Shown one piece after another: positions 6,628 through 58,373 of a stretch of DNA of 64,000 nt. Below the pieces are notes generated by a model. The model had not been told where the DNA came from and made no database searches. It saw only the letters and a list, made by a program, of their open reading frames with translations. Position 1 is the first letter of the stretch. Each line of letters opens with the position of its first letter. The stretch comes from Candidatus Zambryskiibacteriota bacterium (lineage in GTDB: Bacteria; Patescibacteriota; Minisyncoccia; Phycocordibacterales; DATDWN01). Where the stretch lies: contig JAHFOB010000002.1 of assembly GCA_023267045.1 (NCBI GenBank), positions 2,032 to 66,031 of the forward strand, written 5' to 3'. The translations under genes were made by a program, and so were the position numbers.

Positions 6628-6650
6628 GTCCCAATTGTACTACTTTTTGC

Positions 6651-7214
6651 TCAACTACTCTTTTTTCGCAAAATAAAAACAGTCATAGTTGTATTTGCCA
6701 TAATCATAACTATTGAATGTAGAGTTGTAGCGATGTTATATGTCTGCAGAGAAAAAAGAGCCAGAGCGTGACGTAGGACGTTTGTGCCGTAAAGCAGAGG
6801 AGTTTCAGTTTTTGGTTTGAGCCATGTTTTGCGCAAAGTCGGGATGAAAGCGATGAGATCAATCGATACGGCGATGATGACTGAAATAGTCGGGTCTTTT
6901 GTTAGTATCCAAGGAATAAGACCTAGCAGGGCAACGACTAGGAAAAATGTGTCGATTTTTTTAACATGCTTAAATCCATTTGGCAGGGAAAAGAAAAATA
7001 TAATAATAGTAAAAATTTCCGAGGCTCCAGTTGGTAGTGCACCGATGCCAGCGCCTTTTGACAACTGTCCGAAAAAAACAATACACGAAACAATGCTCCA
7101 AACGAACCATGTATATGCGTGCGGTTCTACTTTTCGTTTTATGACATCCCAGAGGTAAGGCAGATTTCCTACAACCGCAAGTATCGCAGCAATTATAGCG
7201 ATGTTTTCTTTCAT
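6651..7214 (-). CDS. polytopic membrane protein, function unknown
   Basis: Multiple hydrophobic segments. Confidence 0.5.
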   Translation of the reverse strand: MKENIAIIAAILAVVGNLPYLWDVIKRKVEPHAYTWFVWSIVSCIVFFGQLSKGAGIGALPTGASEIFTIIIFFFSLPNGFKHVKKIDTFFLVVALLGLIPWILTKDPTISVIIAVSIDLIAFIPTLRKTWLKPKTETPLLYGTNVLRHALALFSLQTYNIATTLHSIVMIMANTTMTVFILRKKSS

Positions 7215-7216
7215 GA

Positions 7217-7588
7217 CTAAAGAAAGTTTCGAACTTTTATTATTTGGTACAGATTAAATGTAACTCCAGAATTGACTACCAAAGCTCCCCAGACCAGAGA
7301 CCAGTCTTTATAATGAATACCTTTTACAAACAAGACGCATTGAATAAAAAAGACGGCGATGGGTAGGAAAACTGATACATTTTTGGCACTTTTTGAAGCG
7401 TGGACCAGCGAGCCCTGATTATAATAACCCAGCGAGACCACTAGCCATCCACAAGCTAGAATAATGCTCCAGATTGTTTGAGTATTCCAAAATCCTTGTC
7501 TGTCTAAAAGATAGTTATAAACAAAATAAGTCGGTACAAGAACAAGCGCGGCAGTAAGAAGTATTTCTAGAAATATTTTTTTACTCAT
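7217..7588 (-). CDS. small polytopic membrane protein, function unknown
   Basis: Four hydrophobic segments; adjacent to and co-oriented with 6651..7214. Confidence 0.5.
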   Translation of the reverse strand: MSKKIFLEILLTAALVLVPTYFVYNYLLDRQGFWNTQTIWSIILACGWLVVSLGYYNQGSLVHASKSAKNVSVFLPIAVFFIQCVLFVKGIHYKDWSLVWGALVVNSGVTFNLYQIIKVRNFL

Positions 7589-7841
7589 TACTAATTAAAT
7601 TACACTATAATTATAACACGTATGTATCTTCTAGACCAAAACTGCTCTTGGCAGTATACTTATGAAATATTGGTATTACTTTATAAATATAAAAAATGAC
7701 TATACAATGGAACAAAGTTACTTGGTATTCAAAACTAGTGGCAGTTATACTTTTTCTTCTTGTTTTTCTGGTGGCTTTTAAACTGGGCTATGGCTATGGT
7801 CAACTAAAAGGGTTATAATTATAAAAATTAATAACAAAAAC

Positions 7842-8030
7842 ATGCCACAAACAAAAATAGTAACAGGGATAGTTGTAGTGATAGCAGTTGCAGTTATTGC
7901 TTACTTTGGTTTTTATAGGTCTACCCCTTCAAACAGTGGGGAAGTTAAAGGAGAAACAACAAGTCAGGGCACAACTGGTCAAACGACAGACAATACAGCA
8001 CTCGGTGAGATGGGTGAACAGGCAAACTAA
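7842..8030 (+). CDS. small membrane-anchored protein (62 aa)
   Basis: N-terminal TM segment followed by a Thr/Gly-rich tail. Confidence 0.35.
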   Translation: MPQTKIVTGIVVVIAVAVIAYFGFYRSTPSNSGEVKGETTSQGTTGQTTDNTALGEMGEQAN

Positions 8031-8035
8031 TCAAG

Positions 8036-8497
8036 ATGAAAAATAAAAAACTTTGGTTATTTGTTGCCTTCATTTTTGTCGTGGCTATTTGCCTAGTATT
8101 TGCCTATGGTAAAAAAGCCGAGGCCCCTTTGCAGGAAAAATCAGAAAGCAAAATCAACTACACCAACTCTTCAGCTGACCTCATAGTAGTTGACCTACCG
8201 TATCCAGACGCGGTAACGGGCAAAGATTTTTCTGTTATAGGGAAGGCTCGCGGAACTTGGTTTTTTGAAGCGTCATTTCCTATAAAAGTTTTAGATAAAG
8301 ATGGAAATACACTAGCTACTGCCATAGCTCAAGCGCAAAGCGATTGGATGACAGAAAATTTTGTTCCGTTCAAGGCTGATGTTAAAATTCCACAGAGCTA
8401 CATAGGAAAAGCAACTTTAATTTTGAAAAAAGATAACCCCTCTGGTCTACCAGAGCACGACGCTTCAATTTCTTTTCCAATAAATATTGAGTATTAA
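8036..8497 (+). CDS. Gmad2 immunoglobulin-like domain protein, secreted
   Basis: Signal/TM segment, then ...GKARGTWFFEASFPIKVLDKDGNTLA... typical of Gmad2 domains. Confidence 0.55.
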   Translation: MKNKKLWLFVAFIFVVAICLVFAYGKKAEAPLQEKSESKINYTNSSADLIVVDLPYPDAVTGKDFSVIGKARGTWFFEASFPIKVLDKDGNTLATAIAQAQSDWMTENFVPFKADVKIPQSYIGKATLILKKDNPSGLPEHDASISFPINIEY

Positions 8498-8640
8498 ACT
8501 CTCTCCAAATAAGCCCCAAGGTTAGCCATATTTTGGTTGTTGCTATAGGTAATCTACAGGGGCTATACTTTACAGCCCTAGAGGGTGTATACTGTAGGGG
8601 AATCACATATTATAAATAACGTATAGATAGAATAAAAAAT

Positions 8641-8895
8641 ATGGCAAAAGAAAATTCTGCGTTTATGAAGCCAATGACAATTAGTAGCGATTTGGCAAAG
8701 GTAGTTGGCAGTGGTCCAATGCCTCGATCTGAAGTTGTTAAGAAGATTTGGATATATATAAAGAAGAACAATCTTCAAGACGCAAAAAATAAACGAAACA
8801 TCAATGCTGATGAAAATTTGAAGAAAGTTTTCGGAGGCAAGTCTATGGTAAATATGTTTGAGATGACAAAGCTTGTTTCAAAGCACCTAAGCTAA
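8641..8895 (+). CDS. SWIB/MDM2 domain protein
   Basis: RSEVVKKIWIYIKKNNLQDAKNKRNINADENLKKVFGG...MFEMTKLVSKHL matches the SWIB domain. Confidence 0.85.
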   Translation: MAKENSAFMKPMTISSDLAKVVGSGPMPRSEVVKKIWIYIKKNNLQDAKNKRNINADENLKKVFGGKSMVNMFEMTKLVSKHLS

Positions 8896-8915
8896 GATTT
8901 GAATAAAAAAGAAAC

Positions 8916-8955
8916 GACCCCGAGAATCCGCAAGGACCTCGGGGTTGTTTTTTTG
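8916..8955 (+). terminator. Intrinsic terminator
   Basis: ACCCCGAG...CTCGGGGT followed by TGTTTTTTT. Confidence 0.6.
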
Positions 8956-8986
8956 TATAATCATTTTGTCGTGGTATAATAAAGTG

Positions 8987-9529
8987 ATGAAAAAGTCACT
9001 TATTTATTTTATTTTATTTTCAGGTGTATTTGTTACTCTAACTTTTTTGTCGTATCTTCTTGTTCAACAGGATTTGCGAATGTCGGCTAACGATCCACAA
9101 ATACAGCTAGCAGAGGATGATGCACGAGCTCTTTCTCTTGGCGCAGTGCCAGCTTCTGTAGTTAGTCGTGGTAAAAGTATTAATATTTCAGAAAGTTTAG
9201 CTCCTTTTGTTATTGTCTATGATAACAAAGGCCTAGCTCTTGAATCTGAAGCAAAACTTCACAACTCTATTCCCATACCACCAAAAGGTGTTTTTGACTA
9301 CACCAGAACAAACGGCGAAGACAGAATAACTTGGCAACCAGAAGACGGTGTGCGTATGGCAACTGTCATAACTAGATGGCAATCCGGAAACAGTTCAGGT
9401 TTTGTTCTTGCCGGCAGGTCAATTCGAGAAGTTGAAAATAGAGCTCAAAATCTACTGCGGATTACTCTTGTCGTTACTCTCTGGCTTGTTGGTTTAAGTT
9501 TGATTTTGGCTATAGTTTTGCCGAAATAA
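8987..9529 (+). CDS. membrane-anchored hypothetical protein
   Basis: ATG at 8987 lies after the terminator and the extended -10 TGGTATAAT (8972-8980). The track start 8945 sits inside the terminator. Has N- and C-terminal TM segments. Confidence 0.5.
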   Translation: MKKSLIYFILFSGVFVTLTFLSYLLVQQDLRMSANDPQIQLAEDDARALSLGAVPASVVSRGKSINISESLAPFVIVYDNKGLALESEAKLHNSIPIPPKGVFDYTRTNGEDRITWQPEDGVRMATVITRWQSGNSSGFVLAGRSIREVENRAQNLLRITLVVTLWLVGLSLILAIVLPK

Positions 9530-9533
9530 TCAA

Positions 9534-10559
9534 ATGAACTTTGCAAAAAGAGAATGGATAATCACAGGGTCAGTCGTTGCTGTCGTTGTTCTCGCCTTTG
9601 GCATATATTTTTTTATAACTGGTAGCAAAACCCATCAACTCGTGGCAAAAAAAGATGCTGTACAGAAAGATCTAGAAAGTGCTAAACAGGTTTTGACTGA
9701 TGAAACTGAAACTCTGAACAACATGGTTATCGGTTTACGAAACTCTTTTTCTTTCGCCATGTCTATTCAGGATCAAATAAAGATAACTAAAGGTTTGGTG
9801 GCACAGACAGACTTTCTCTTCACCGGCCCAAACGGTAACAACCCAAAGATGATTTTTAAAAATTCAGACAGTGATATTTTAATAAACGCCGAAAGAAGAG
9901 ACATAAATATTATTTTGGAAGAGTGGCAGAAAAAAATCAGTCTTTCCGCACTTAACGACCTAGATGAACAAGAAGCTCGTTTGATAGAGGAACAGACTAG
10001 AATAGTACAGAGATATATAGAAGATATTACAGAAATAGTTAATACTTCAACTCCAGAAAACTCTGGTTTGACTGTGGCAAAAATAGAAGACTATAAATCC
10101 AAACTTCCTGGAGCAGATTCTGTTACCGATGTTATAACTTCTATAGCTCAAGCGGTTGTTGATAACCAGAATAAAAACACACAGAACAATACTTCTCCAG
10201 TTGTTGCCTATGTTCAAACCATATATCCAGAAATGCAGGCTTCGACCACAGGAAGCTTTACTCCACAAACACCTTCCATTACTCCAGAGGACGTTATTGC
10301 CCAACAAGCTATAGTTGATGCTGCTCAAGCGCAAGTTGACGCTCTGCAAAAACAGCTTGAACAAATAAACCAGCAGATAGCCGATCAAAATAAAACAAAT
10401 ACAGCTACAACCACAGTAGTAAATCAAAATCAGGATGGGCAAACTACTAATTACAACTACTCGAACTATAGTGGTAGTTACATATATAGTCAGGGGGAAT
10501 CAGGTTTTCAGGATCTTATTGCAAAACCTGGTGTGCCACAACCTCTCCAAGGAAATTAA
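9534..10559 (+). CDS. membrane-anchored coiled-coil, Q/N/T-rich hypothetical protein
   Basis: N-terminal TM, long charged helical region, Q/T/N-rich tail. Confidence 0.5.
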   Translation: MNFAKREWIITGSVVAVVVLAFGIYFFITGSKTHQLVAKKDAVQKDLESAKQVLTDETETLNNMVIGLRNSFSFAMSIQDQIKITKGLVAQTDFLFTGPNGNNPKMIFKNSDSDILINAERRDINIILEEWQKKISLSALNDLDEQEARLIEEQTRIVQRYIEDITEIVNTSTPENSGLTVAKIEDYKSKLPGADSVTDVITSIAQAVVDNQNKNTQNNTSPVVAYVQTIYPEMQASTTGSFTPQTPSITPEDVIAQQAIVDAAQAQVDALQKQLEQINQQIADQNKTNTATTTVVNQNQDGQTTNYNYSNYSGSYIYSQGESGFQDLIAKPGVPQPLQGN

Positions 10560-10564
10560 TAAAA

Positions 10565-10586
10565 GCCCCGGTTTCGGGGCTTTTAT
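10565..10586. terminator. Bidirectional intrinsic terminator
   Basis: AAAAGCCCCGgtttCGGGGCTTTT. Confidence 0.6.
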
Positions 10587-11365
10587 TATTTGTGATTCTG
10601 ACAATAAACATACATCGCATCTCGCATAAAGACAGCTAGTCCTTTTGCATATTTTTCGAAATATGCAGTGAAGCGTGGGTCGTCGACATACATTTGGGCA
10701 AGTCCACGGTACATTTCTATGTTTGGTTCATAAAATGTTCGCAGGTTGTTGTAGTGTCTGTCTATCAACTTCTGAACGTCACGACTTTCAGGACCTTTGT
10801 TCATATTTGCCACGATCTCTTTCATAAGTTCATCACCATTTTTTTTCATAGTAAACATGTCTTCTTTGGACATTTTCTTTACCTTTTCCTGTGACTGTTT
10901 ATAAGCTTCGGTATTTCCCCATCTCTCTTTTGCTTCTTTTGCATATTTTTTATCATGCTCTTTAAATGACTGGTATAATTCTTCATCTTTCATAGTAGTT
11001 TCTTTTTTGGTCATACGGCCACTGCTCGCTTGCAGCGGTTGTATTCTTTTAATTGTTTTATCAATTGTCTGAACAAGTTTTTCTAGCCTAATTTTTTTGA
11101 TTTCAATAAGTTTTTTGTGATCTCTCAAAGCTGCAGTCGTATCAAACTTTGGATCATCCATTATCTTCTTTATTTCTACGATAGGGAAGTCAAGCTCTCG
11201 AAAAAACATTATTTGCTGTAGTTTCAAAAGCTCTTTTTCCTCATAGAACCTATATCCATTATTTTTTACTCGGCTAGGTTCAAGAAGCCCGACTTCGTCA
11301 TAGTAGTGAAGCGTACGGACTGTAACTCCTGAAATATTGGCTAGTTTTTGAACTGTGTAAGACAT
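10586..11365 (-). CDS. MerR family transcriptional regulator with a TipAS-like C-terminal domain
   Basis: MSYTVQKLANISGVTVRTLHYYDEVGLL (MerR HTH); C-terminal ...YNNLRTFYEPNIEMYRGLAQMYVDDPRFTAYFEKY is TipAS-like. Confidence 0.85.
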   Translation of the reverse strand: MSYTVQKLANISGVTVRTLHYYDEVGLLEPSRVKNNGYRFYEEKELLKLQQIMFFRELDFPIVEIKKIMDDPKFDTTAALRDHKKLIEIKKIRLEKLVQTIDKTIKRIQPLQASSGRMTKKETTMKDEELYQSFKEHDKKYAKEAKERWGNTEAYKQSQEKVKKMSKEDMFTMKKNGDELMKEIVANMNKGPESRDVQKLIDRHYNNLRTFYEPNIEMYRGLAQMYVDDPRFTAYFEKYAKGLAVFMRDAMYVYCQNHK

Positions 11366-45276: not shown

Positions 45277-46176
45277 ATGAATATACAAATATTGGCTCAG
45301 AAATTTTACGACTATTCATTGTATATGCGTGGTCGCAGACCAGCAACAATTAGACGATATAGACAGGCAATCAACTTGTACTCCAGACTGGCAGGAGTTT
45401 CAGAAATAGAACAAGTGACGGAAGACAATGTAAGACAATTCTTTTTTAATGGAAGAACTAAACGCAACTGGAAACCAAATTCGTTTATTTGTTTCTATCA
45501 TTCTCTGTTAGTATTTTTCAAATGGTGTCTGAATGAAAAGTATCTGACAAAAAATCCAATTGATGATCTTGAAATACCAAAGGTAGAAAAACGGTTGCCG
45601 GCCTGCCTTACCAAGCAGGATGCTTTCAAACTCATTGAAGTTGTTTATAACTATCCGTACGATTATAAATATTTGCGATACAGAAACCATGCTATATTTT
45701 CAACTTTTATTTTCTCTGGTTTAAGAAAGAAAGAGTTGTTGAAATTAAAATATACTGATATTGACCTGGAGAATCTAAGTATATTTGTTAATCAGGGCAA
45801 GGGTGGTAAAGATCGAATAATACCGATATGTAGCACTTTGGCCCAGAGCTTAAAACGTTACTTGGAGGAACGCAAACGACTCAACAAAACATGTCCAGAA
45901 TTCTTTGCATCTCTGAACCGAAATTGTGGATTTACTGATATGGGGCTCCGGGGGTTAGTCTTTAAGATAAGAAAGGCGTCTGGTATAAAATTCACAATTC
46001 ATAAACTCCGACACACCTTTGCAACATTAATGTTGGAAGGTGGTTGCGATATTTTTAGTTTGTCTAAAATGATGGGTCACAGTGACATCAAGACCACAAC
46101 AATTTATCTCTCAGCCAGTGCTAATCATTTAAGGTCGCAGATGATTAAACACCCGTTGAATGATTTGGTAACCTAG
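45277..46176 (+). CDS. tyrosine-type site-specific recombinase/integrase (int1)
   Basis: C-terminal catalytic region HKLRHTFATLMLEGGCDIFSLSKMMGHSDIKTTTIYL (R...HxxR...Y). Confidence 0.85.
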   Translation: MNIQILAQKFYDYSLYMRGRRPATIRRYRQAINLYSRLAGVSEIEQVTEDNVRQFFFNGRTKRNWKPNSFICFYHSLLVFFKWCLNEKYLTKNPIDDLEIPKVEKRLPACLTKQDAFKLIEVVYNYPYDYKYLRYRNHAIFSTFIFSGLRKKELLKLKYTDIDLENLSIFVNQGKGGKDRIIPICSTLAQSLKRYLEERKRLNKTCPEFFASLNRNCGFTDMGLRGLVFKIRKASGIKFTIHKLRHTFATLMLEGGCDIFSLSKMMGHSDIKTTTIYLSASANHLRSQMIKHPLNDLVT

Positions 46177-46192
46177 CTGTCTACTGTTTCTG

Positions 46193-46265
46193 TGGACCCT
46201 GCCGGATTCGGACCGGCGACCTCCGCATTGCAAATGCGGCGCTCTACCAACTAAGCTAAGGGCCC
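46193..46265 (-). tRNA. tRNA-Ala (anticodon UGC), intact, carried inside the island
   Basis: Reverse complement reads GGGCCCTTAGCTTAGTTGGTAGAGCGCCGCATTTGCAATGCGGAGGTCGCCGGTCCGAATCCGGCAGGGTCCA. G3:U70 acceptor pair; anticodon stem CCGCA/TGCGG with loop TTTGCAA. Confidence 0.85.
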
Positions 46266-46560: not shown

Positions 46561-46974
46561 TCATGGATACACTGTTTTGTTTGGCCGCTCCAGGAGGTGC
46601 GGATTTTTAGTAATCATCTCGTTATAGATGGCCATATCCCGGTCGCAATTCTGTGCAAAGTGGCGTTGAATCTCTGCGGGTCCCATATCCTCTCCGCTAC
46701 CGGCCCCCGCTCCGTATTGCATGTAGTAGCTCAAAGTAATGATGGCGAGGTCCCAATCGATGCCATTTGCGGCGGGACACTCCGGAACTGTGCTCTCGAG
46801 TGCATACGAGTAGAAATAAACCGGTAGTATCACCCCGCTTGACTCCTCATCCGGGCTTGGTGATTCATTGGCTCGGGAGAGAGTTTCTGGAATAGACCCA
46901 TGTTTGAGAAGCAGGGTGCCAGCAACAAGTGCCACCGCAATAACCGCTATGAGAATGTAGGGGGCTTTGTTCAT
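46561..46974 (-). CDS. secreted hypothetical protein, GC-rich
   Basis: Signal peptide; composition differs from the host genes. Confidence 0.45.
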   Translation of the reverse strand: MNKAPYILIAVIAVALVAGTLLLKHGSIPETLSRANESPSPDEESSGVILPVYFYSYALESTVPECPAANGIDWDLAIITLSYYMQYGAGAGSGEDMGPAEIQRHFAQNCDRDMAIYNEMITKNPHLLERPNKTVYP

Positions 46975-46978
46975 GTTT

Positions 46979-47872
46979 TTATTTTTTGTATGCTGTTTTA
47001 TTATATTTTAATCTTATGGCCTTAAGCATTGATTCTGATTCGCCAATTATTCTTTCTGACGAATGAGTGATGGTACGATAATTCATTCTCTCCATCATTT
47101 CACTGTCTACTCCAATATATGAATCACGTTCAAGTATCCAACCAGCAAGAAGTAATCGATTCTTCGATAACGGCAAAGTCACATCAACATCTTTATATGC
47201 AAATCCCGGGAGACTCCCAAATGCATTTGGACCATATTTTTTAATTGCCTCTGGTCTTAACAAGACAATTGGATCATCAGATGTCACATAGCCTCCACTT
47301 GGGGATTCCCATATAGACCATTTCATATCAAATATTATTTGAGAGAGATGTGGAAGTTGGGCGAGGATACTCAATGCATGTTCTTCTTTGTAGTTCTCTA
47401 AATATTCTTCAATATCGCTCATGTGAATCGCTTTACCACTGCTTGGGGTTGCGGCTGCAATTCGCCTTGCTTCTGGGTTATCTTCGTATCGTTGTCTCCA
47501 TTCCTCCATACTTTTTTTCATGGATAAAACCATGCGATGCATACTCTCCCTATGTGGTCTTGTTCTAAGAAAAAGTGCTGCAATAAATACAGAAACTTTT
47601 GCTCGTTCTTCATCTGTCAGAAACAAATTTTTTGTTATCTTTTTTTCAAATATGGCCGCATAAGTACCCTCGATATTGGCTAATGTATCTTCAACAAATA
47701 AACTCTTATCACCGTTCTTTAATGTGACGGTATAGAAATGGCTTTCTACCAGAATGTTCTCGGGTTTTGTTTTGAAAATATTATCCTTCGTATCAAGCAC
47801 CCAAACGAAACCATCACTGTCAGTGAAATTTTGTAGGTAGCATCTTGGTATTGTGTGGTGACGTTTTTTCAT
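46979..47872 (-). CDS. DUF4238 domain protein
   Basis: N-terminal HHTIPRCYLQNF matches the DUF4238 signature (HxVPqfYLrxF). Confidence 0.55.
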   Translation of the reverse strand: MKKRHHTIPRCYLQNFTDSDGFVWVLDTKDNIFKTKPENILVESHFYTVTLKNGDKSLFVEDTLANIEGTYAAIFEKKITKNLFLTDEERAKVSVFIAALFLRTRPHRESMHRMVLSMKKSMEEWRQRYEDNPEARRIAAATPSSGKAIHMSDIEEYLENYKEEHALSILAQLPHLSQIIFDMKWSIWESPSGGYVTSDDPIVLLRPEAIKKYGPNAFGSLPGFAYKDVDVTLPLSKNRLLLAGWILERDSYIGVDSEMMERMNYRTITHSSERIIGESESMLKAIRLKYNKTAYKK

Positions 47873-48035: not shown

Positions 48036-48887
48036 ATGAAGATTCTCGCAGAAGCTGATACGGCACAGGTTCTTACTGGTCTGTTCCATCAGATCGGTGA
48101 CCAGAACTGCTACGTCGTGCAGATGGAACAAAGACGAGACACGTACGATACGTTGCAAAACGTGTCAGGACTCGACCTCGTTCTCAACGTCGCTCCGGAA
48201 GGTACACCCGTCGTCATGCTTGGATGGATGACGCCGAAAATGTATACCGACCTCAAGCCACAGGAGTGGTTCGCAGCGATGGGCTACCCGAACGTGATGT
48301 TCCGTCGCCTACCGGCAACACTGGAAGACGTTGTGAGTGCGCTTGAAGAAGTGAAGATTGGCAGTCGCCAGTCAGATCCTCTTGCAATTGCACTTCTCGG
48401 CGTCGATCAGATGAACTCGACTGTCAGAGTCCTTAACCACGATCTTTTGTCCGCTGAACGAGATTCAGAGCGGATGATTCGATGGGTTGAGCGAGCTCGG
48501 GCAGCATTCGGCGACAAGCCCCAAGCCGAACTGATTTCCTTGGTGAAAGATGCCGGGAAATTGGGAGGTCTTCCTGGTCCACTCACGGGTCAAATGTTCC
48601 CTGATGTCTGCGTGGATGTCGAGGGGACACTTCTGGTCGACGGGCAGATTCGTTCCGAAGTTATCGCTTTGGCACAAGAGAAAGCGAACGGCGGACCGAT
48701 CACTGTTTGGACTGGTGGGAACATCTACGACCTTACCAAGCAACTTCGTGGTTTGGGAGTGACCCACAAGATTACCTCCAAGCACACCATGAAGGATGCG
48801 ACTGTTCGAGTGGTGATCGACGACCAGCCGGAAGAAGCGTTCAAGAGCAACTACGGCGTCGGTTACGAAAAGTACATTCAGATCTAG
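48036..48887 (+). CDS. hypothetical protein, strongly GC-rich, with a possible C-terminal HAD-like phosphatase motif
   Basis: GC visibly ~55%. VCVDVEGTLLVDGQ resembles HAD motif I (DxDGT) and VVIDDQPEE motif IV; the N-terminal 170 aa are unknown. Followed by a bidirectional terminator (AGCCCCA...TGGGGCT, TTTTT). Confidence 0.45.
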   Translation: MKILAEADTAQVLTGLFHQIGDQNCYVVQMEQRRDTYDTLQNVSGLDLVLNVAPEGTPVVMLGWMTPKMYTDLKPQEWFAAMGYPNVMFRRLPATLEDVVSALEEVKIGSRQSDPLAIALLGVDQMNSTVRVLNHDLLSAERDSERMIRWVERARAAFGDKPQAELISLVKDAGKLGGLPGPLTGQMFPDVCVDVEGTLLVDGQIRSEVIALAQEKANGGPITVWTGGNIYDLTKQLRGLGVTHKITSKHTMKDATVRVVIDDQPEEAFKSNYGVGYEKYIQI

Positions 48888-48964
48888 TGTCTGCACTTAG
48901 TAGACACAAAAAGAAAGGAGAAAACACAAAGCCCCAAGCAAACACGCTGGGGCTTTTTCAATTA

Positions 48965-49729
48965 TTATTTAATACCAATTATTAAATCATCTCTTGTGTC
49001 ATCTGGTATTAGAATGTAAACATTTTTAAATCCAGCGACTTTCATTTGTTCAACAAGTTCTTCTTTTGTTATGAGATAACTTTTTCTTACTACCTCTCCT
49101 TCACTCAAATCACTTTCAACTCTCGTGGTCCATGTGTTTATTCTTTTACCCCAGTCAAATGTTGATTTCCAAATAGTGTGATATTGCTCACCATTTCTTT
49201 CTGAATCAAAAGTCCTATCAGAACCTTTGTAACTTGGTACATAATGTTTACCTAATCCTATGACAACGAGTCCATTATCCTTTGTAGCTTCAAAAAAACT
49301 TTTCAAACACATTTGTATTCTTGGAATAATGTTTTCTAATTTCTCCGGAGTTTCTCCACCCATCCAACCGTCCATATATACGAAGGAGTTATCTGCATTT
49401 ACAATCACATCAAATTTTTCAGATATTTTATTACCTAATTCCTGCCAAGAAGAATGATAAGCTGATATTTCCATTCCCTCTGATTTAAATTTCTCCTGTA
49501 ATTCCTTAGCGTATGTTTCGTTTCCATCGGTAACACTTAGATTTGTAAATCCTAACTTATATAAATCGAAGGTAGGAAAACCTGTGCCTCCAGCAGTATC
49601 CAGTATTTTAAGATTTTTATCTTTCAAAACAAAAGCTAGAGCTTTTGAATAATTAGTACGATACTGCTCGTCATGTAAAGCATTTCCTGCAATTTCCCAA
49701 ACTTGTGATTGTGTGAGTTCTTTTTTCAT
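48965..49729 (-). CDS. class I SAM-dependent methyltransferase
   Basis: Motif I ILDTAGGTGFPT, motif II/post-I acidic residue, VIVNADNSFVYM. Confidence 0.8.
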   Translation of the reverse strand: MKKELTQSQVWEIAGNALHDEQYRTNYSKALAFVLKDKNLKILDTAGGTGFPTFDLYKLGFTNLSVTDGNETYAKELQEKFKSEGMEISAYHSSWQELGNKISEKFDVIVNADNSFVYMDGWMGGETPEKLENIIPRIQMCLKSFFEATKDNGLVVIGLGKHYVPSYKGSDRTFDSERNGEQYHTIWKSTFDWGKRINTWTTRVESDLSEGEVVRKSYLITKEELVEQMKVAGFKNVYILIPDDTRDDLIIGIK

Positions 49730-49732
49730 AAT

Positions 49733-50263
49733 TTAATTGTTTTTAATAAATGGCTCTACATTCTTTATGATTTCTTGAATGTCATTATATTTGTGGTCTT
49801 CACCTGGTAATTCTAACAAATTATAATTTTTAACACCTGATTTATTTAACACTTCCCTTAAAACAGTAGAAGATGTTGTTCTATCATTTGTTTGTTGAAT
49901 AAAGAGACTCGGAATAGCAAAGTTATTTAATAACTCATCCATGTCCCACCCATTTTCCTTACTCCATTCATAAGCTGTGCCGGCAAAAATACATTTGATT
50001 GGTTTTATATACCCATTGCGTATAGCTTGAAGCGTAAGTGCGACTCCTACAGATTTGGCAAAAATTACAAGATCATTTTTTCCTTCCGCTAATTTTTTTA
50101 AGTTTTCTACTTCTGACCTAATATCAACATCTTCTTTATAATCTTTCCAATTTTCATAATAAAGAATCTCTACTGAATTGAACAAACCTCCGAATGTTTT
50201 TCGGATATTTTCTACCCATTCTTTATTATAATCACTGTAGCCCCCAAGGATAATAAGATTCAT
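49733..50263 (-). CDS. small alpha/beta-fold serine hydrolase-like protein (YdeN/RBBP9-like size)
   Basis: 176 aa; LVIFAKSVGVAL contains a G/A-x-S-x-G nucleophile elbow. It sits 4 nt from each neighbour in the operon. Confidence 0.4.
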   Translation of the reverse strand: MNLIILGGYSDYNKEWVENIRKTFGGLFNSVEILYYENWKDYKEDVDIRSEVENLKKLAEGKNDLVIFAKSVGVALTLQAIRNGYIKPIKCIFAGTAYEWSKENGWDMDELLNNFAIPSLFIQQTNDRTTSSTVLREVLNKSGVKNYNLLELPGEDHKYNDIQEIIKNVEPFIKNN

Positions 50264-50267
50264 GTAT

Positions 50268-52103
50268 TTAATTTAGAGTTGGGTTATACACCTTTTCAAA
50301 CGCATATATACCAATAATCTCCACCAAAACATCATTTATATTGCCATAAAATGCCTCTGTTTGCATTCTTGCTTCATCGTTACCCAAAAGACCTTCAATG
50401 AACTCTTTTTTGTATACACTCTGAAGAAGTGGTGATGACAACATACTTTCCTTATTTTTTTCAATGATGTCAAAAAGTTCCTCACTATAATTCTTCTTTT
50501 TTGGTCCAGGACTTTTTACTCTGTAGACAATCTCATGTGGTAATTTATCCTCCAACATTTTTCTGAATAAATGTCGTCCAGAAGTAGTAGATGCGATATG
50601 AGTTTTATAATCACATTTGTCCGCAAACTCTACGAGTAGTCTATTCACAGTAGGGACCCTGACCTCAATTCCTGAATGCATTCCGAATTTATCTTCACTC
50701 GCAAGCATTGTTGGTAACATATTCTCCCTTATAAATGCCGTGATAAGTTTCTGTTGATTTTCCTGCTGTCCGATGTCACCAAAAACACTTTTTACGTATT
50801 CTGTTGAAGTTAATTCTGCGTCCTTAGTAAATTGATCCGAAAGACCTGATAGTTTTAATGCGTTGAGTTTCTTAAAATAGTCTATGACATTTTCAGTGTT
50901 AAATACTCCTTCTCTGTAAAAAATGCTCATCCAATAATCGAGAGGATAATAACCATAAAAGACTTCGTCAGCACCTTGTCCATTAAAACAAACTTTCAAC
51001 CCAGCTTTTTTAACGGCTTGGTAGTTTTTTAGCTTGGTAATATAACGAATATCCACCACTGGTTCTTCTCTGGCAATAGTCGCTTCCATGAAATCCTCAA
51101 GAGTAAATGGGTCATCAAGGTTTAGTTCGTGCGGTTCAAAAACATTTCCGTATTTCTCAGAAAGAATTCCTAACAATTTTTGAGTATACTCTAAATCTGT
51201 CTTCTCACCTCGTTTATTAAAGTAGTATGTAAACGTTGGTATTATTTTCTCCTTCTCTACTAGGTATGGAGTAGCTAGTGTTGAAATAAAAGTACTGTCT
51301 ATACCACCAGAGAGAATCATTCCGATTGGTACATCACTTCGTGTTTCCCAATGAATAGCTTTGTCTGCAATAACACTGAAATCGTTCTCGATTTTTGAAA
51401 TATCTTCTGTAATGGACGTTTTAAAATCTGGAATGTAATAAGCCTCCTTATTTTTTACAGCTCCACTTGAATCTAAAATTAAATAATTACCTGGTTCTAA
51501 GCTCTGAATACTTTTGAAAAAAGACTTTGTTTTCTGACTACCAATAAAGCGATCGAGAAATAGGTGAGTCTGTAACATTGAATGATCCAGTTGTGCAGGA
51601 ACATAGTTCAGTATGGAAGCAATTTCAGATGAAAAAATAAACTTTTCTTTATCGTGATAATAGAAGAGGGGTTTTACACCAACTCTATCTCTAGCAACAA
51701 TATATTCTTTTTTCTGGGAGTCATAGAAACAGAAGCCGTATATTCCGTTTACTTCTTGCAAGAAATCAATTCCTTTATGGGTCAGTCCAGCAATTAAAAC
51801 CTCAGTGTCCCCAGTTGTTTTAAATTCATAGCCTTCTTTTCTCAAGTCCTCTCGTAATTCTATGAAGTTATATATTTCACCATTGAACACAAGCCAATTG
51901 TCATGATAATGGAATGGTTGCATAGCTTCAATTTTCAAATCTTGAATTGATAGCCAGTTAAAACCAAATAAACAGTTTTCGTTGATCTTCTCTACCAAAG
52001 AACCATCCGGACCCCTGTGTTTTGATTTTTCTAGAGCACGTTCAAATACCTCTTTGTCTAGGTTTGATTGGTTTTCTGAGATTATGCCGATTATTCCACA
52101 CAT
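50268..52103 (-). CDS. asparagine synthetase B-like glutamine amidotransferase (class-II GATase plus PP-loop synthetase)
   Basis: N-terminal MCGIIGII (Cys2 nucleophile); PP-loop ILSGGIDSTFIS. Confidence 0.8.
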   Translation of the reverse strand: MCGIIGIISENQSNLDKEVFERALEKSKHRGPDGSLVEKINENCLFGFNWLSIQDLKIEAMQPFHYHDNWLVFNGEIYNFIELREDLRKEGYEFKTTGDTEVLIAGLTHKGIDFLQEVNGIYGFCFYDSQKKEYIVARDRVGVKPLFYYHDKEKFIFSSEIASILNYVPAQLDHSMLQTHLFLDRFIGSQKTKSFFKSIQSLEPGNYLILDSSGAVKNKEAYYIPDFKTSITEDISKIENDFSVIADKAIHWETRSDVPIGMILSGGIDSTFISTLATPYLVEKEKIIPTFTYYFNKRGEKTDLEYTQKLLGILSEKYGNVFEPHELNLDDPFTLEDFMEATIAREEPVVDIRYITKLKNYQAVKKAGLKVCFNGQGADEVFYGYYPLDYWMSIFYREGVFNTENVIDYFKKLNALKLSGLSDQFTKDAELTSTEYVKSVFGDIGQQENQQKLITAFIRENMLPTMLASEDKFGMHSGIEVRVPTVNRLLVEFADKCDYKTHIASTTSGRHLFRKMLEDKLPHEIVYRVKSPGPKKKNYSEELFDIIEKNKESMLSSPLLQSVYKKEFIEGLLGNDEARMQTEAFYGNINDVLVEIIGIYAFEKVYNPTLN

Positions 52104-52107
52104 ATAT

Positions 52108-54252
52108 TTATATAATTTTAATTACACCTGAGTCTGCATTTACTTCTACCTTATCTCCATCTTTTAAAACTTTTGTCGCTATTTTTGTCGCAATGATACA
52201 GGGTTTATTAAGCTCTCGAGCAATTATGGCCGCATGACAGGTAACACCTCCTTCATTAGTGATTATAGCAGAAACTTTAGATAGGATCTGAGTAAATTCT
52301 GGTCGTGTCATAGATGTAACCAATATATCTCCATCAACTATTTTATGAAAATCATTTCGAGATAATACTATCTTTACTGGACCAACTACTTTCCCAGGCA
52401 TCGCAGAGACGCCTTTTATTGTTTTTACATTGTCGCCAACTTCAACATTTTTAACAATTGCTTTCCATTCATCGTGAGATATATCTATCAAGCCATCATG
52501 AGTTACTTCGGCAAATCTTACACCCCCATAGTTTTTTAATGTCTCATTCTTATTCTGTTCAAACTCCTCTACAGTAGACATCACCGCTGTTTCTCGAGAA
52601 ATTTTATACTTACTACACTCTTGAATAAGATAGCGATCTAATAAACCATCAACAATTAAATTAGACTTCTTCCGTTCGTCTCGCATCATGGTCAAAAAGT
52701 CTATCCATTCCAACATAGTGTTTGGTTCCTGTAATTCAACCTCAGAATAACTAACATCTTCCTTCAAAATCTCGTTTTTTCTTTTTATAAAATCTTCTTC
52801 GGTCGTTCTGTATTCTCCAGAGTAGTCATTTTGAAGCCATGAATACTTGAGAGTATGCTCAGTTACTTTATCTTCAAAAGACTCCGACTCATTAAAAATC
52901 TGCTTCAACTCATACTTCTCTTTTTGTGCAAAAGAAAAGTATTTCTTTTCGAGTGTAGAAATATTAATTCCTTCATTTTTGATGTATTTGTCAAAAGCAT
53001 AATCCAATGAGTAACCAATACCTATGGCAACACTATAAATCGCATCAAATTCTTGGTAAAAATCTTTTATATCACTAACAGTTTTATTTTTCAGGTCCTT
53101 GTAGTTTCTCTTCTCGAGTCTTTTATTTAACTCCAAGAGTTTTTGAGCTAAATCAAAAAGATAATTTTCAAATACGTGATCATTTTTCAGTAACAAATCA
53201 AAAAAGAAATCACCGTATTCTTCAAATGAGCTTTCAGGGGCATCAACGATCGTTGTCGTTCCATAACGAAATTTTACAAACCAACCACCCATTAAATACT
53301 TGTTATTATATTTTTGTTTTGGAGCATTTGCGGTAGAAGAATAGAAAAACGGGTATATTGGATTTTCAAAAGAAACAAACTTTTCTAAAGTTGTAATAGG
53401 TCTACTCTGTAGAATATAAAACTTGTCTTTTTCAAAAGCCCATTCAATATCACATGGAAAACCGAAATGGTTTTCAATTTGAATGACGATATCAGACAAC
53501 TCCATGATTTGTTCATCAGTTAGAGTTGGTTTATCAATAGGATTACTTTCGAGAATAGTTTTTGTATCTTTTTTTACCACATAACTATCGGGAGTAACCG
53601 ACCCAGATACGATAGCTTCACCAAGTCCATGCACTGCCTCTATAATGAGTTGATTTTTATCTTGCGTAACTGGGTGAACAGAGAAAGCAACGCCAGATAC
53701 AACGCTCTGTATCATTTTTTGTACGACAACGGCTACTGATATTTGAGTAGTGTGTAAACCTTTTTCAAAACGATAGAAAATGGCACGAGGAGTAAAAAGC
53801 GATGCCCAGCAATGCTGTATTTTTTCCACTAGATCTTTCTCGCTGATATTTAGAAAACTATCAAGTTGTCCTGCCCATGCATGTTCCTGACCATCTTCAC
53901 TTGTAGCTGAAGAACGAACGGCAACATATTCCGCATTGAGATTTTTGAATTGTTCTATAACCTCTGTTGCTATGTCCTCAGGTATTACAGCATTTTTAAT
54001 TAAACCTTGGATTTTCTCCGAAGCATTCTCGACTGCATGTATTTCTTTGTGATTAACAGCATCTAGAATTGAATCTATTTTTTGAGTTAAATCTGTCTCG
54101 TTGAGGAAGCGATCAAAAGTGCTGGAAAGCACAACAAAACCTTCTGGGACAGAAATGCCTAGTTGGACCATCTCGCCCAAAGAAGAACCTTTTCCGCCAG
54201 CGATATCAACATCATTTTTGTTAATCTTTTGGAATGGTCGAATTAGCTCCAT
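52108..54252 (-). CDS. PEP-utilising enzyme family protein: PPDK/PEP-synthase N-terminal ATP-grasp domain plus phospho-His swivel domain (rifampicin-phosphotransferase-like architecture)
   Basis: N-terminal GGKGSSLGEM..GISVPEGFVV (PPDK_N). C-terminal TNEGGVTCHAAIIARELNKPCII is the PEP-utilisers mobile-domain His motif. No C-terminal TIM-barrel domain is present. Confidence 0.7.
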   Translation of the reverse strand: MELIRPFQKINKNDVDIAGGKGSSLGEMVQLGISVPEGFVVLSSTFDRFLNETDLTQKIDSILDAVNHKEIHAVENASEKIQGLIKNAVIPEDIATEVIEQFKNLNAEYVAVRSSATSEDGQEHAWAGQLDSFLNISEKDLVEKIQHCWASLFTPRAIFYRFEKGLHTTQISVAVVVQKMIQSVVSGVAFSVHPVTQDKNQLIIEAVHGLGEAIVSGSVTPDSYVVKKDTKTILESNPIDKPTLTDEQIMELSDIVIQIENHFGFPCDIEWAFEKDKFYILQSRPITTLEKFVSFENPIYPFFYSSTANAPKQKYNNKYLMGGWFVKFRYGTTTIVDAPESSFEEYGDFFFDLLLKNDHVFENYLFDLAQKLLELNKRLEKRNYKDLKNKTVSDIKDFYQEFDAIYSVAIGIGYSLDYAFDKYIKNEGINISTLEKKYFSFAQKEKYELKQIFNESESFEDKVTEHTLKYSWLQNDYSGEYRTTEEDFIKRKNEILKEDVSYSEVELQEPNTMLEWIDFLTMMRDERKKSNLIVDGLLDRYLIQECSKYKISRETAVMSTVEEFEQNKNETLKNYGGVRFAEVTHDGLIDISHDEWKAIVKNVEVGDNVKTIKGVSAMPGKVVGPVKIVLSRNDFHKIVDGDILVTSMTRPEFTQILSKVSAIITNEGGVTCHAAIIARELNKPCIIATKIATKVLKDGDKVEVNADSGVIKII

Positions 54253-54344
54253 AATTAAGCAAATTTTAACACATTTTCAACCTTTTTGTCCCAACAAAAA
54301 ATGGCGGTAACCCATGACGGGACCGCCGTTTAATGTTATCTCCT

Positions 54345-55040
54345 CTATCTCCGTGATGTCATAAGAAATGACGATATCAGTTCCGATGCATCAAATTTGG
54401 AACATGACTCTGCTTCCTGTAGCCATCGTTCTCGTTCAGTTGGACTGGCAATACGTTCGAATATAAGGGACGTCAGCAAATCCTTTTGTTTTGCTGTAAT
54501 TGGTTCATCTTCACCACCTTCGTATTTCTTGGGAAAGAAATTGCTGGAGCCATTGTTTACACTCTGGACCGTTTCCTCCTGAATTACTTCAGGTGAAATG
54601 TCTTCGAGATCGCTAGTAAAGATGTCTGAGAGTCCTGTGGAGCGAATGACGGCATCTATGAAAGCTGATTTTTGCGCCATCTTCACTGTCTTGTTGGCAT
54701 CGTTGCCATGACTCTTTAGCACTGCCGCACCACGACCCTGACCTACCGTTTCCCCGGACCGAGTGAGTGTGCAGACATATGCTAACAACCCCTCTACACT
54801 CCTAAATGACTCTATGGTATCGGCATCCTTTGTGAATGTGGCAACTAGCGAGTATATCGTGGCTAGTTTCTCTGCACCGGCTTTGCCGAGCGACTGACGA
54901 CCCTTGATAGTGTAGTAGTCTCGATTCTCCACAAGCTTTGGGAGTATCTTCTGAATGAAGTAATCCCGTTTCTGCAACAGTGAATCAACTCCAGTTTTGA
55001 ATTGGGCGATGCTATCTGAAGCAATGAGTGCTGTATTCAT
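54345..55040 (-). CDS. hypothetical protein, possibly a phage-type ssDNA-annealing/recombination protein (weak)
   Basis: 231 aa; overlaps the upstream gene by ATGA and has a terminator at 54262-54300. Its resemblance to RecT/Rad52-like annealing proteins is uncertain. Confidence 0.35.
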   Translation of the reverse strand: MNTALIASDSIAQFKTGVDSLLQKRDYFIQKILPKLVENRDYYTIKGRQSLGKAGAEKLATIYSLVATFTKDADTIESFRSVEGLLAYVCTLTRSGETVGQGRGAAVLKSHGNDANKTVKMAQKSAFIDAVIRSTGLSDIFTSDLEDISPEVIQEETVQSVNNGSSNFFPKKYEGGEDEPITAKQKDLLTSLIFERIASPTERERWLQEAESCSKFDASELISSFLMTSRR

Positions 55041-55354
55041 GATGTTTTATTCTTTTCAACTTGTTTGTAATAGAACAGGAACACGTTTCGCTTAATGCGT
55101 TTGACGATATTCCCGTTATTGTCCTTCACTTCGACAAAAGTGACGGATCGAATAGCTCTCTCTCCTTTACGAACTACATAACCAAGAGATAGCCATTTAG
55201 CGAACGTAAGAGTGTTGTGGTGTGGGTCGTACTTTTCGACCTCGTCATCACCCCAGCGACTCTTTATTTCCGAAGCGACCAGATCGTAGGTAGTTTCGGA
55301 GCCGGTATAGCCTGAGATTGGCGGACCAGCCATTATTTGCTTGAAACTTTTCAT
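55037..55354 (-). CDS. ArdC N-terminal-like (DUF1738) ssDNA-binding domain protein
   Basis: FAKWLSLGYVVRKGERAIRSVTF matches the ArdC_N core (W...GY.V+KGEKG). Confidence 0.45.
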   Translation of the reverse strand: MKSFKQIMAGPPISGYTGSETTYDLVASEIKSRWGDDEVEKYDPHHNTLTFAKWLSLGYVVRKGERAIRSVTFVEVKDNNGNIVKRIKRNVFLFYYKQVEKNKTS

Positions 55355-56740: not shown

Positions 56741-57748
56741 TTGGTAAATGAGACATACATGCGAACTAAAAAGAAGGATGTAGCTGTTATCCAAAAAGAT
56801 CCGCTGAATTCGCTAAATCCAGATCGTCTGGATGAGCTTTTTGATCAGTTTATGACGGAAAAGAAATATGTGACACTACTTCGCCCTGCTACCTTGATTG
56901 GGTATAGAGCATCGTATGACCTTTTTAGAAAACTCTCGTATGTCACAATTGATTCACTCACCACAAAATCGCTGACTAATTTTTTCAAGGAGATGCAAAC
57001 CAGAACTAGAATTGTTGGTAAGGGGGTTGAGAAAATTGGTGTTAAGGATTCAACCATAGCAACATATGCTATGAAGCTTAATGTATTTTTTGAGTGGTTA
57101 GTTCAAGAAAAACATATCATTGAAAATCCAATCAAAAAATTGCCAAAATACAGACCAGTCTATGATGACAAAAGAGCCTTACGCAAAGGAGATATCGAAT
57201 ATATCAGAACAGCAATTGAAAACCACTCCACTACTTTGCTACAAAAGAAGAGAGATCAAACGATGCTCGCTGTACTTCTGTTTTGTGGGATAAGAAGAGG
57301 AGAACTACTTGGCTTGAAAGTGACTGATATCGACCTGGAAAAAAGGCAACTGATAATTAGAGGCGAAACATCGAAATCAAAGCGTACGAAAATTTTACCG
57401 ATTACCAATAAAATATTAGCAATGGCTTTACAAGATTATTTGAATGAGAGAAAAAATTACAAAACTCCGCAATTATTTGTTTCGTTAAATACTGACAAAG
57501 GACTAAGCTACGAAGGATTCAAACATTGGATTGACAGGTTGGAACTATTGTCTGGTGTAAAATTTCATTCGCATCGATTTCGTCATACCTTTGCTACAAA
57601 TCTTGAAGCTAACGATGTTGGCATTATAAAGATTTCAAAACTTATGGGTCATAAAGATACAAGAATGACTCAAGTGTATCTTCGCTCGATGGGATCAGAG
57701 GACTTAGGACCAGAGATGAGTACCCTGACATTTGACAACTTGATATAA
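56741..57748 (+). CDS. tyrosine-type site-specific recombinase/integrase (int2), reading toward the right junction
   Basis: HSHRFRHTFATNLEANDVGIIKISKLMGHKDTRMTQVYL catalytic motif. Confidence 0.85.
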   Translation: MVNETYMRTKKKDVAVIQKDPLNSLNPDRLDELFDQFMTEKKYVTLLRPATLIGYRASYDLFRKLSYVTIDSLTTKSLTNFFKEMQTRTRIVGKGVEKIGVKDSTIATYAMKLNVFFEWLVQEKHIIENPIKKLPKYRPVYDDKRALRKGDIEYIRTAIENHSTTLLQKKRDQTMLAVLLFCGIRRGELLGLKVTDIDLEKRQLIIRGETSKSKRTKILPITNKILAMALQDYLNERKNYKTPQLFVSLNTDKGLSYEGFKHWIDRLELLSGVKFHSHRFRHTFATNLEANDVGIIKISKLMGHKDTRMTQVYLRSMGSEDLGPEMSTLTFDNLI

Positions 57749-58010: not shown

Positions 58011-58373
58011 GCGTCAGTGGAAGACAGAGTCATGTTTTTATACCAATAAAAACGGACGAGTCAGGGTCGTGGAAATTTTGTTTTGACGAAAATAAAATTA
58101 TTCCTGACCACAAAATGTATTAGGAAAATAGTGGCTGACCCCATTTTCCCTGACCCCATTTTCCCCATCTTCTAAATAAATCATTGCTATGGTATTGTTT
58201 TGTTACAACTAAATAAGTTAAAGTAGCCTAAACCAAGTAATTGGCATGGTGAAAAGCCCAGTAACGAATAAAAAACCCATCATGCGGGCTTGTCGTTACT
58301 GGCCATATCGGGAAACCGGTATGGGGAGCTTCGGCTCCCACCCTGTGGTGGGCTTTTTGTATAAATAAAAAAT

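Follow-up and report, generated by a model that had tools for sequence, protein, structure and literature searches.

A recurrent four-gene operon of predicted small-molecule enzymes in Patescibacteria and its linkage to purD

Which pathway is served by four tightly packed genes on the minus strand of a Candidatus Zambryskiibacteriota contig? The stretch of this contig that we analysed (64,000 nt of JAHFOB010000002.1, hereafter the window) carries, in this order, genes for a phosphotransferase of the pyruvate phosphate dikinase (PPDK) type (K), an AsnB-type glutamine amidotransferase (A), a small α/β-hydrolase (H) and a methyltransferase dependent on S-adenosylmethionine (SAM; M). Judged by its sequences, the operon appears to be a biosynthetic or tailoring set for a small molecule, put together from known enzyme superfamilies in a combination that is new, and most likely it makes neither asparagine nor phosphoenolpyruvate (PEP) by the ordinary routes. 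Tentatively, we read it as a dedicated small-molecule pathway whose intermediate derives from glycine and is probably of the ribonucleotide type, being either glycinamide ribonucleotide (GAR) or a close analogue.

Recurrence of the operon and its linkage to purD

The genes for K, A, H and M form one operon, as they are separated by gaps of only 4, 4 and 3 nt (TAA-atat-ATG, TAA-atac-ATG and TAA-att-ATG, respectively, when the sequence is read directly) and are enclosed by hairpin terminators on both sides. The coordinates of the four open reading frames (ORFs) and their spacing of 3-4 nt are exactly those given in an earlier first-pass annotation of this DNA. The same genes recur in the same order in other genomes (loci L003, L004, L005/6, L007, L008/9, L029 and L030), where the flanks are unrelated, and the K-A pair lies at a contig end in L028; the recurrence covers at least 8 other contigs besides the window. 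Orthologues at these loci share 55-75% identity for K and 73-90% identity for A. Because gene set and order are kept while the flanks are unrelated, the linkage exceeds chance. The first-pass annotation had taken the set for a dedicated module rather than housekeeping metabolism, and had regarded conserved co-occurrence in other genomes as support for such a module. Both views hold up, given the linkage just described and a K that is devoid of a TIM barrel and scores below the PEP-synthase and rph cut-offs.

That ordinary housekeeping genes merely came to lie side by side, CPR (candidate phyla radiation) genomes being compact, is therefore extremely improbable. Such an account could draw on the asparagine synthase model TIGR01536, whose cut-off is exceeded by A, and on the fact that CPR operons often mix functions. 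However, gene order is kept at the K and A identities given above and with unrelated flanks, the A-M linkage persists down to 42% A identity and in varied orientations, the rare clade to which A belongs amounts to 25 clusters in 5.8 billion proteins, and the TIM barrel that is catalytic in PpsA is missing from K.

A fifth gene was absent from the first-pass view of the window. In 6 of the K-A-H-M loci, purD, which encodes phosphoribosylamine-glycine ligase, follows M after 0-14 nt and scores 463-480 bits on TIGR00877 (cut-off 288), and we regard the five-gene arrangement K-A-H-M-purD as the native form of the operon. The window and L004 have no purD next to the module: the 64-kb window holds neither a purD elsewhere nor a purD remnant 3′ of M, and in L004 a truncated Tag-like gene (3-methyladenine glycosylase I family, 5769-6281) occupies the usual place of purD. 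In L003, a gene for a fusion of NUDIX and HD_4 domains (RelA/SpoT-hydrolase-like, 6948-7991) ends 9 nt before K.

Which of these genes belong together most tightly? K and H are absent from all three distant A-clade loci that we examined. In L054 (A 42% identity), A is followed after a 9-nt gap by purD (405 bits on TIGR00877) and then by a convergent M fragment; in L055 (A 46% identity), two tandem M paralogues lie divergent from A and are followed by ABC-2 exporter genes; and in L056 (A 51% identity), M is convergent with A. Altogether, all 11 loci keep A and M together, in four arrangements, and 7 of the 11 also have purD alongside, in two arrangements; K and H are confined to the sub-clade in which A is at least 73% identical. 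The evolutionary core of the module is A together with M, often with purD, and K and H are later additions in one sub-lineage. Since the linkage of A and M is independent of gene order, it is strong evidence that both act in one pathway, and the evidence that the purD linkage is functional is good but not conclusive.

The flanks add several observations. In L055, ABC_tran and ABC2_membrane genes come after the two M paralogues in the same orientation (6406-9895 for the whole set), which suggests that the product of A and M is exported in this genome. Another feature of L055, shared with L028, is the presence of DUF3800 genes in the vicinity of the module. Pyrimidine genes are present in L003 (pyrD and pyrG) and in the window (pyrF), and no pur gene besides purD was found in any flank of the loci examined.

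The presence of purD raises the question of whether the module fills a gap in early purine biosynthesis. A would then replace the glutamine-dependent PurF, PurL or PurC/PurB and K an ATP-dependent O-activation (e.g. that of PurM), which would make the module housekeeping metabolism of a reduced genome; we find this doubtful. In its favour, A lies directly beside a bona fide purD in L054 and purD ends the operon in 6 other loci, the class-II N-terminal nucleophile (Ntn) glutaminase domain is common to A and PurF, PP-loop enzymes adenylate carbonyl or lactam oxygens, the genes when read in reverse (purD-M-H-A-K) parallel steps 2 to 5 of the pathway, and the pyrimidine genes mentioned above show that these lineages make some nucleotides. 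L054 recalls the PurF-PurD step pair in that an enzyme with a class-II glutaminase is encoded beside purD, and coupling the producer of phosphoribosylamine to PurD would make sense, as this compound is unstable. Where PurF has a phosphoribosyltransferase domain, however, A has a PP-loop adenylating one; its constant partner is a methyltransferase, and its match to TIGR01134 (PurF) is confined to the class-II Ntn glutaminase domain. Moreover, purine synthesis has no place for the tightest partner of A, the SAM methyltransferase M, nor for H; in the window, the module is carried without purD by a mosaic region flanked by integrase genes; the coupling of A and M to an ABC-2 exporter in L055 suggests an exported product; and the flanks lack any other pur gene.

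The four predicted enzymes

A begins with MCGIIG and contains SGGIDS, and it joins a class-II (Ntn, Cys2) glutaminase to a PP-loop adenylating synthetase, with Pfam matches to GATase_6/7 and Asn_synthase (GATase_7 122 bits, Asn_synthase 133 bits), as the first-pass annotation had described for an AsnB-like enzyme. Its closest solved relative is the hydroxyamidotransferase TsnB9 (7ylz), which aligns over the full length (E = 4.9e-35). In a search space of 5.8 billion proteins, homologues fall into 25 clusters at 42-90% identity (531-1258 bits), after which there is a drop to at most 33% (at most 258 bits), and A thus appears to be a member of a rare, sharply separated AsnB-type clade. On the asnB equivalog model NF006949, A scores 214.6 bits, below the cut-off of 499. 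It carries GQGADE where E. coli AsnB has GEGSDE, which places Gln at the position of Glu348, a residue that is essential for the β-aspartyl-AMP intermediate in E. coli AsnB. This Gln is present in the A of the window and in all 25 listed homologues of its clade (GQG[AS]DE), and also in 60 of 95 other AsnB-like matches outside the clade. Together with the rarity of the clade, it argues against plain asparagine synthesis, and A is best described as a predicted AsnB-type enzyme that is not a canonical AsnB. The Cys2 Ntn glutaminase and SGGxDS are common to A, AsnB and the AsnB paralogues (TsnB9, DdaH, LtsA/AsnB1, AsnO of N-acetylglutaminylglutamine amide (NAGGN) synthesis and β-lactam synthetase), from which A differs by its separate clade and by the Gln at the Glu348 position. 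We know of no characterised AsnB paralogue that has, like A, an obligate linkage to a methyltransferase resembling glycine/sarcosine N-methyltransferase (GSMT) plus a frequent linkage to purD.

The fourth product, M, has the motifs of a class-I SAM methyltransferase, the assignment originally made for it. In profile searches of the PDB it matches almost only glycine N-methyltransferase (GNMT) and GSMT (E = 6.7e-9 to 3e-4), in an alignment that spans DTAGGTGF (motif I) and NADNSFVYM (the NSFxY region). GlySarMtaseBact (NF051855) is its top match in NCBIfam at 38.7 bits, with a cut-off of 350, and is also the top match of the M homologues in L055 and L056 (32-46 bits). M is therefore a distant relative of the glycine/sarcosine N-methyltransferases. 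It shares SAM motif I and the NSFxH/Y-L/M motif with GNMT and with the pair formed by GSMT and sarcosine/dimethylglycine N-methyltransferase (SDMT; PDB 5h02, 5gwx), a pair that the two tandem M paralogues in L055 recall. In contrast to these enzymes, M lies far below the family cut-off, its substrate-binding residues are not alignable, and its partner is an amidotransferase instead of osmolyte genes.

In K, an ATP-grasp domain of the PPDK type occupies the N-terminus (~1-290) and is followed by a central helical domain (~300-600) and, at the C-terminus, by a phospho-histidine swivel domain that carries His673 in the motif GGVTCH. Pfam scores are 299.5 bits for PPDK_N and 81.6 bits for the mobile domain PEP-utilizers, and there is no match to PEP-utilizers_C; with the swivel domain at the extreme C-terminus, K has no PEP/pyruvate TIM barrel. 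All 14 orthologues that were aligned keep G668, G669, T671 and H673, and His673 is predicted to be the catalytic phospho-carrier residue. A profile of these 14 orthologues aligns with PEP synthase and with the Listeria rifampicin phosphotransferase (RPH; 5fbs) only at ~3-300 and ~606-724; for 5fbs the aligned parts are residues 4-294 and 619-724, with a block of ~320 residues between them left unaligned, and the AlphaFold2 (AF2) model agrees. Pfam, profile alignment and AF2 model thus all match the earlier description of a PPDK-type nucleotide-binding domain joined to a phospho-histidine swivel on an RPH-like plan. In NCBIfam, K stays far below every cut-off of the curated PEP-synthase, PPDK, rph and PigC models, with 408 bits on NF005057 (cut-off 598) and 394 bits on TIGR01418 (cut-off 740) for PEP synthase, and 309.5 bits on NF041857 (cut-off 999) for rph, a score due to the ATP-grasp and swivel domains, both of them generic.

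How does K compare with the enzymes it resembles? The ATP-grasp domain and the phospho-carrier His of GGxTxH are also found in PpsA and PPDK, but PpsA has the order ATP-grasp, swivel, TIM barrel, so that its swivel domain lies in the middle of the protein. RPH (PDB 5hv1/5fbs) has the same order as K, namely ATP-grasp, substrate domain and C-terminal swivelling His domain, whereas its rifampicin-binding domain has no detectable sequence similarity, nor clear structural similarity, to the helical central domain of K. The chemistry predicted for K is that of the PPDK-like kinases devoid of a TIM barrel (RPH, Cj1418, TalE, PigC/RedH), in which ATP is converted to AMP and Pi and the β-phosphate is passed on via His~P. 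Enzymes of the RPH-type plan phosphorylate rifampicin, the amide N of L-glutamine and a dipeptide amine (PMC6482885). More distant relatives of K (identity of at most 50%) are members of a very large family of 1000-1250-aa proteins in CPR and DPANN genomes, which have no A, H or M nearby. These 'PEP/pyruvate-binding' proteins contain one ATP-grasp domain followed by two units of a helical domain with a swivel His, and in L026 the extra units are separate genes of 486 and 497 aa; members of the family (e.g. in L010 and L026) are commonly annotated as PEP synthase.

The RPH-like plan could also point to a cassette for the inactivation of a xenobiotic or antibiotic, in which K would phosphorylate the drug as RPH does, H and M would add esterase and methylation functions, and mobile elements would spread the set. 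The domain order of K is that of rph and NF041857 is among its better matches (309.5 bits), the module lies between integrases, and the mosaic histories of its genes indicate lateral exchange. This interpretation is nonetheless quite improbable: the rph score stays far below 999 and stems from generic domains, the central domain of ~300 aa has no similarity to the rifampicin-binding domain, most copies are chromosomal and lie in ordinary neighbourhoods, and a glutamine amidotransferase together with purD would be senseless in a resistance cassette.

Phosphoramidate (N-P) chemistry, as in the O-methyl phosphoramidate (MeOPN) of Campylobacter or in agrocin 84, is another option. Here, A would turn a carboxylate into a primary amide, K would phosphorylate an amide or amine N, M would O- or N-methylate the product, and H would release the final group. 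PPDK-like kinases devoid of a TIM barrel are known N-P-bond formers, as exemplified by the L-glutamine kinase Cj1418 and by TalE, and the clusters for agrocin 84 and phaseolotoxin also contain PPDK homologues (PMC6482885). The agrocin 84 plasmid pAgK84 encodes a split PPDK-like pair beside a nucleotidyltransferase and a methyltransferase, and the MobA-like nucleotidyltransferase domains that are fused to some distant homologues of H would also suit such a pathway. The MeOPN pathway of Campylobacter jejuni (Cj1415-Cj1420) brings together a PPDK-like kinase, a hydrolase, SAM methyltransferases and glutamine nitrogen, a combination that resembles the operon. However, it also includes a cytidylyltransferase (Cj1416), a GATase-1-type hydrolase (Cj1417) and the APS-kinase-like Cj1415, none of which was found in the operon or its flanks by domain search, and the operon of the window, unlike the MeOPN pathway, has an α/β-hydrolase and an AsnB-type enzyme, with purD in related loci. 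We consider N-P chemistry unlikely. A and M occur without K in L054-L056, so that the substrate of M is not a phosphate made by K and K is not part of the core; the window operon has no nucleotidyltransferase; the 29% identity between K and the pAgK84 protein is confined to generic domains; and since Cj1418 and TalE share less than 20% identity (PMC6482885), sequence cannot place K with either. As a parallel to the operon, pAgK84 was set aside: its PPDK-like pair has no AsnB-like gene nearby in the 20 kb read, and identity to K is 29%.

H gives only a faint match in Pfam and no significant family. Its AlphaFold model (pLDDT 91.6) has a lid-less α/β-hydrolase fold, with LipS (4fbl), a YdeN-like hydrolase (3bdv) and monoglyceride lipases as Foldseek neighbours (probability 1.00 for 4fbl, 3bdv and 3rm3), and all 52 of the diverse homologues aligned keep Ser71 (in KSxG), Asp127 and His157. 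From this fold and these residues, H is predicted to be an α/β serine hydrolase with a nucleophile elbow and a Ser71-Asp127-His157 triad, in agreement with the small serine hydrolase proposed at first pass. An exhaustive profile search yields a family of 989 representatives. Homologues of H at 45% identity or less, from 14 genome loci and ~20 metagenome loci, come from WWE3, Saccharibacteria, Roizmanbacteria and DPANN archaea, and none adjoins K, A, M or purD. Given these other contexts and the fusions described below, H has been recruited into the module from a general small-hydrolase family. As these homologues lie outside the context of K, A, M or purD, H was rejected as a marker for widening the module. 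Many distant homologues (33-38% identity; WWE3, Saccharibacteria and metagenome contigs; L016-L018, L035, L036, L038 and L039) are single genes between divergent genes that look, by eye, miaA-like and miaB-like. Other members of the family carry a fused domain of MobA-like nucleotidyltransferase, dTMP-kinase-like or prephenate-dehydratase type.

A proposed glycine-centred pathway

What could these enzymes make together? The glycine-centred reading rests on two independent glycine-associated families, PurD and the GSMT-related M, and the occasional neighbours are related to nucleotides (the NUDIX-HD_4 gene in L003 and the Tag-like gene in L004). The intermediate would be glycinamide ribonucleotide or a close analogue. 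A would transfer glutamine-derived nitrogen onto an adenylated oxygen function, either making the amine that PurD glycylates or amidating the product, and M would N-methylate a free glycyl-type amino group. K would move the β-phosphate of ATP to His673 and from there to a metabolite held in the helical domain, with conversion of ATP to AMP and Pi, whereas H would hydrolyse an ester or amide for release, proof-reading or self-protection. The copy in the window would be a four-gene version without purD in a mosaic, integrase-flanked region.

Several points speak against such a pathway. The substrates of K, A, H and M are assigned by inference, and the central domain of K (~300 aa) matches no recognisable relative with a known substrate. 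GAR has no carboxylate, so that the canonical AsnB reaction does not fit directly; the step catalysed by A would need either to precede PurD or to involve an amide or another oxygen function. In addition, A scores above the cut-off of TIGR01536 (313.9 versus 267.1 bits), and canonical purine synthesis has no SAM methyltransferase step. Finally, purD is not adjacent in 4 of the 11 loci, the window included, and its linkage could partly reflect inherited synteny within one lineage. The weight that remains beyond the glycine-centred pathway and the five alternatives discussed in this text goes to something else.

Rather unlikely, in our view, is a further proposal, namely that the A-M-purD core represents an unrecognised branch or variant of the first purine-precursor steps in Patescibacteria. 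In one version, A would be a phosphoribosylamine amidotransferase (or one for another pur intermediate) that is independent of PurF, depends on ATP and a PP-loop, and feeds PurD. In the other, GAR would be converted to a new N-methylated, phosphorylated nucleotide-like metabolite that may serve as antimetabolite, signal or cofactor. In both versions, K would stand for a new substrate class of the RPH type.

The first-pass annotation could not match the operon to a named system, and neither can we: no described system with the K-A-H-M gene set was found, and a literature search on this combination, or on purD or purF in CPR, gave nothing relevant.

Genomic setting and flanking signals

Table 1. 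Coordinates of the operon genes and of surrounding features, numbered from the first nucleotide of the window.
Feature	Position	Strand	Description
MerR/TipAS-type regulator gene	10586-11365	-	antibiotic-recognition domain, 128 bits
First tyrosine-recombinase gene	45277-46176	+	
tRNA-Ala(tgc)	46192-46265	-	16 nt from the end of the first tyrosine-recombinase gene
ORF	46561-46974		52-53% GC
DUF4238 gene	46979-47872	-	PADLOC candidate model DUF4238-Pers, E = 6.7e-17
ORF convergent with the operon	48036-48887		283 aa, 53% GC (52-53% with the ORF above)
3′ hairpin AGCCCCA-11 nt-TGGGGCT	48930-48954 (with tail to 48959)	both	T-run on +, T-rich run on - (sequence reading)
M	48965-49729	-	254 aa, class-I SAM-dependent methyltransferase
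H	49733-50263	-	176 aa, α/β-hydrolase
A	50268-52103	-	611 aa, AsnB-type amidotransferase
K	52108-54252	-	714 aa, PPDK-type phosphotransferase; first gene
Upstream control region	54263-54327	-	terminator-like hairpin of the preceding gene and promoter-like match; consensus-level basis
ORFs	54345-55354		43-46% GC
Second tyrosine-recombinase gene	56741-57748		
Tandem repeat	58135-58164		perfect 2 x 15 nt, adjoins the LOOT motif
LOOT RNA motif (RF03000)	58225-58339	+	80.7 bits, gathering score 46.4

The module lies between two tyrosine-recombinase genes (Table 1), and the tRNA-Ala gene beside the first of them is a classic integration-site arrangement. GC content is 31-35% in the module and 37.6% in the window as a whole, and the neighbouring ORFs for which no family could be assigned (46561-46974, 48036-48887 and 54345-55354) lie well above both, at 43-53%. 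Elsewhere, the window holds ordinary chromosomal genes such as uvrABC, tgt, pyrF and ddl; these genes and the names of homologues place the host in Patescibacteria (CPR). The mobile island on which the operon had first been placed is thus plausible by virtue of the two integrases, the tRNA-Ala gene and the mosaic GC content; no att-like repeat was found, nor a copy of the tRNA-Ala 3′ end within 44.6-58.5 kb. Of the two neighbours assigned to that island, the DUF4238 gene is confirmed (141 bits), while the ArdC_N-like gene is a weak match (20.2 bits, Pfam cut-off 22.6). The ORF convergent with the operon has no relative in Pfam or the PDB, and its reading by eye as a HAD phosphatase (DVEGT motif) found no support in these searches. 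Just 3′ of the second integrase gene lies a LOOT RNA motif, which is possibly an element boundary. At some distance, the window also encodes a MerR/TipAS-type regulator, an unusual cargo in a reduced CPR genome.

Has the module itself been exchanged between lineages? Pairwise identities for each of K, A, H, M and purD were arranged in matrices covering L003, L004, L005, L007, L009, L029, L030 and the window. The A of the window is 90% identical to that of L009 and L029, and its K, H and M are 73-77% identical there; between L007 and L009, K shares 59% identity and purD 84%. The matrices are mutually incongruent, which indicates that recombination between lineages has probably occurred inside the module and fits lateral mobility.

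Given this setting, is the operon a module for DNA or tRNA base modification, or for anti-phage defence? The DNA-modification part of this idea goes back to the first-pass annotation, and the integrase-flanked region does hold the DUF4238 gene, the only defence-related match of PADLOC between the two integrase genes, along with the weak ArdC_N-like gene. The Tag-like methyl-adenine glycosylase gene that stands in for purD in L004 and the distant H homologues between the miaA-like and miaB-like tRNA-modification genes (read by eye) could be counted in its favour as well. We regard it as highly improbable, however, and the database searches do not bear it out. PADLOC-DB v2 has no match for K, A, H or M, and a scan of IMG/VR with the A-clade profile gave nothing above 30% identity on viral contigs. 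By tblastn, phage and plasmid records yield only distant PpsA, rph and AsnB relatives of K or A, which in phage records stay below 38% identity and in several cases are probably host DNA; in PHROGs, only generic kinase and AsnB-like families were found. Furthermore, the module has no nuclease, glycosylase, transglycosylase or DNA-binding component, and most copies do not lie beside defence genes.

The signals around the operon were read directly from the sequence, as our hairpin pattern scanner is limited to loops of at most 8 nt and both flanking hairpins have longer loops. The 3′ hairpin is predicted to be a terminator common to the operon and the convergent ORF. It is plausibly bidirectional, as first annotated, given the T/A runs on both sides, although it does not extend over 48925-48955 as then assumed. 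Upstream of K, a terminator is indeed present, but the position originally given (54262-54300) is about 30 nt off the terminator-like hairpin of the preceding gene, which lies at about 54303-54327 and has its T-run at 54294-54302. The promoter proposed with it, TTGAAA-17-TAATTA, falls away: its last base is already the A of the start codon of K, and it is therefore unable to drive a transcript that uses this start. GGGACA-18-TAAAAT (54292-54263) is a better-fitting promoter-like match, from which the K mRNA would be nearly leaderless; promoter-like matches in the region are, however, not above the level of shuffled sequence (26 found, 21.9 expected in the consensus scan). An Rfam scan of the 11 module loci and of the window between 44 and 60 kb found no riboswitch 5′ of the operon.

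In conclusion, the operon links three elements to purD, namely a rare AsnB-type clade, an enzyme resembling glycine methyltransferases and a phosphotransferase of the RPH type, in an arrangement that is conserved and laterally exchanged. It is found in Patescibacteria, which are very abundant, uncultured and metabolically reduced, and of which few accessory pathways are understood. If the purD link is functional, the operon would point to a non-canonical route to early purine intermediates in organisms thought to depend on a host for nucleotides, or to a new metabolite derived from GAR. It also provides a first genomic handle on the very large PPDK-like family of CPR and DPANN genomes that is routinely mis-annotated as PEP synthase.

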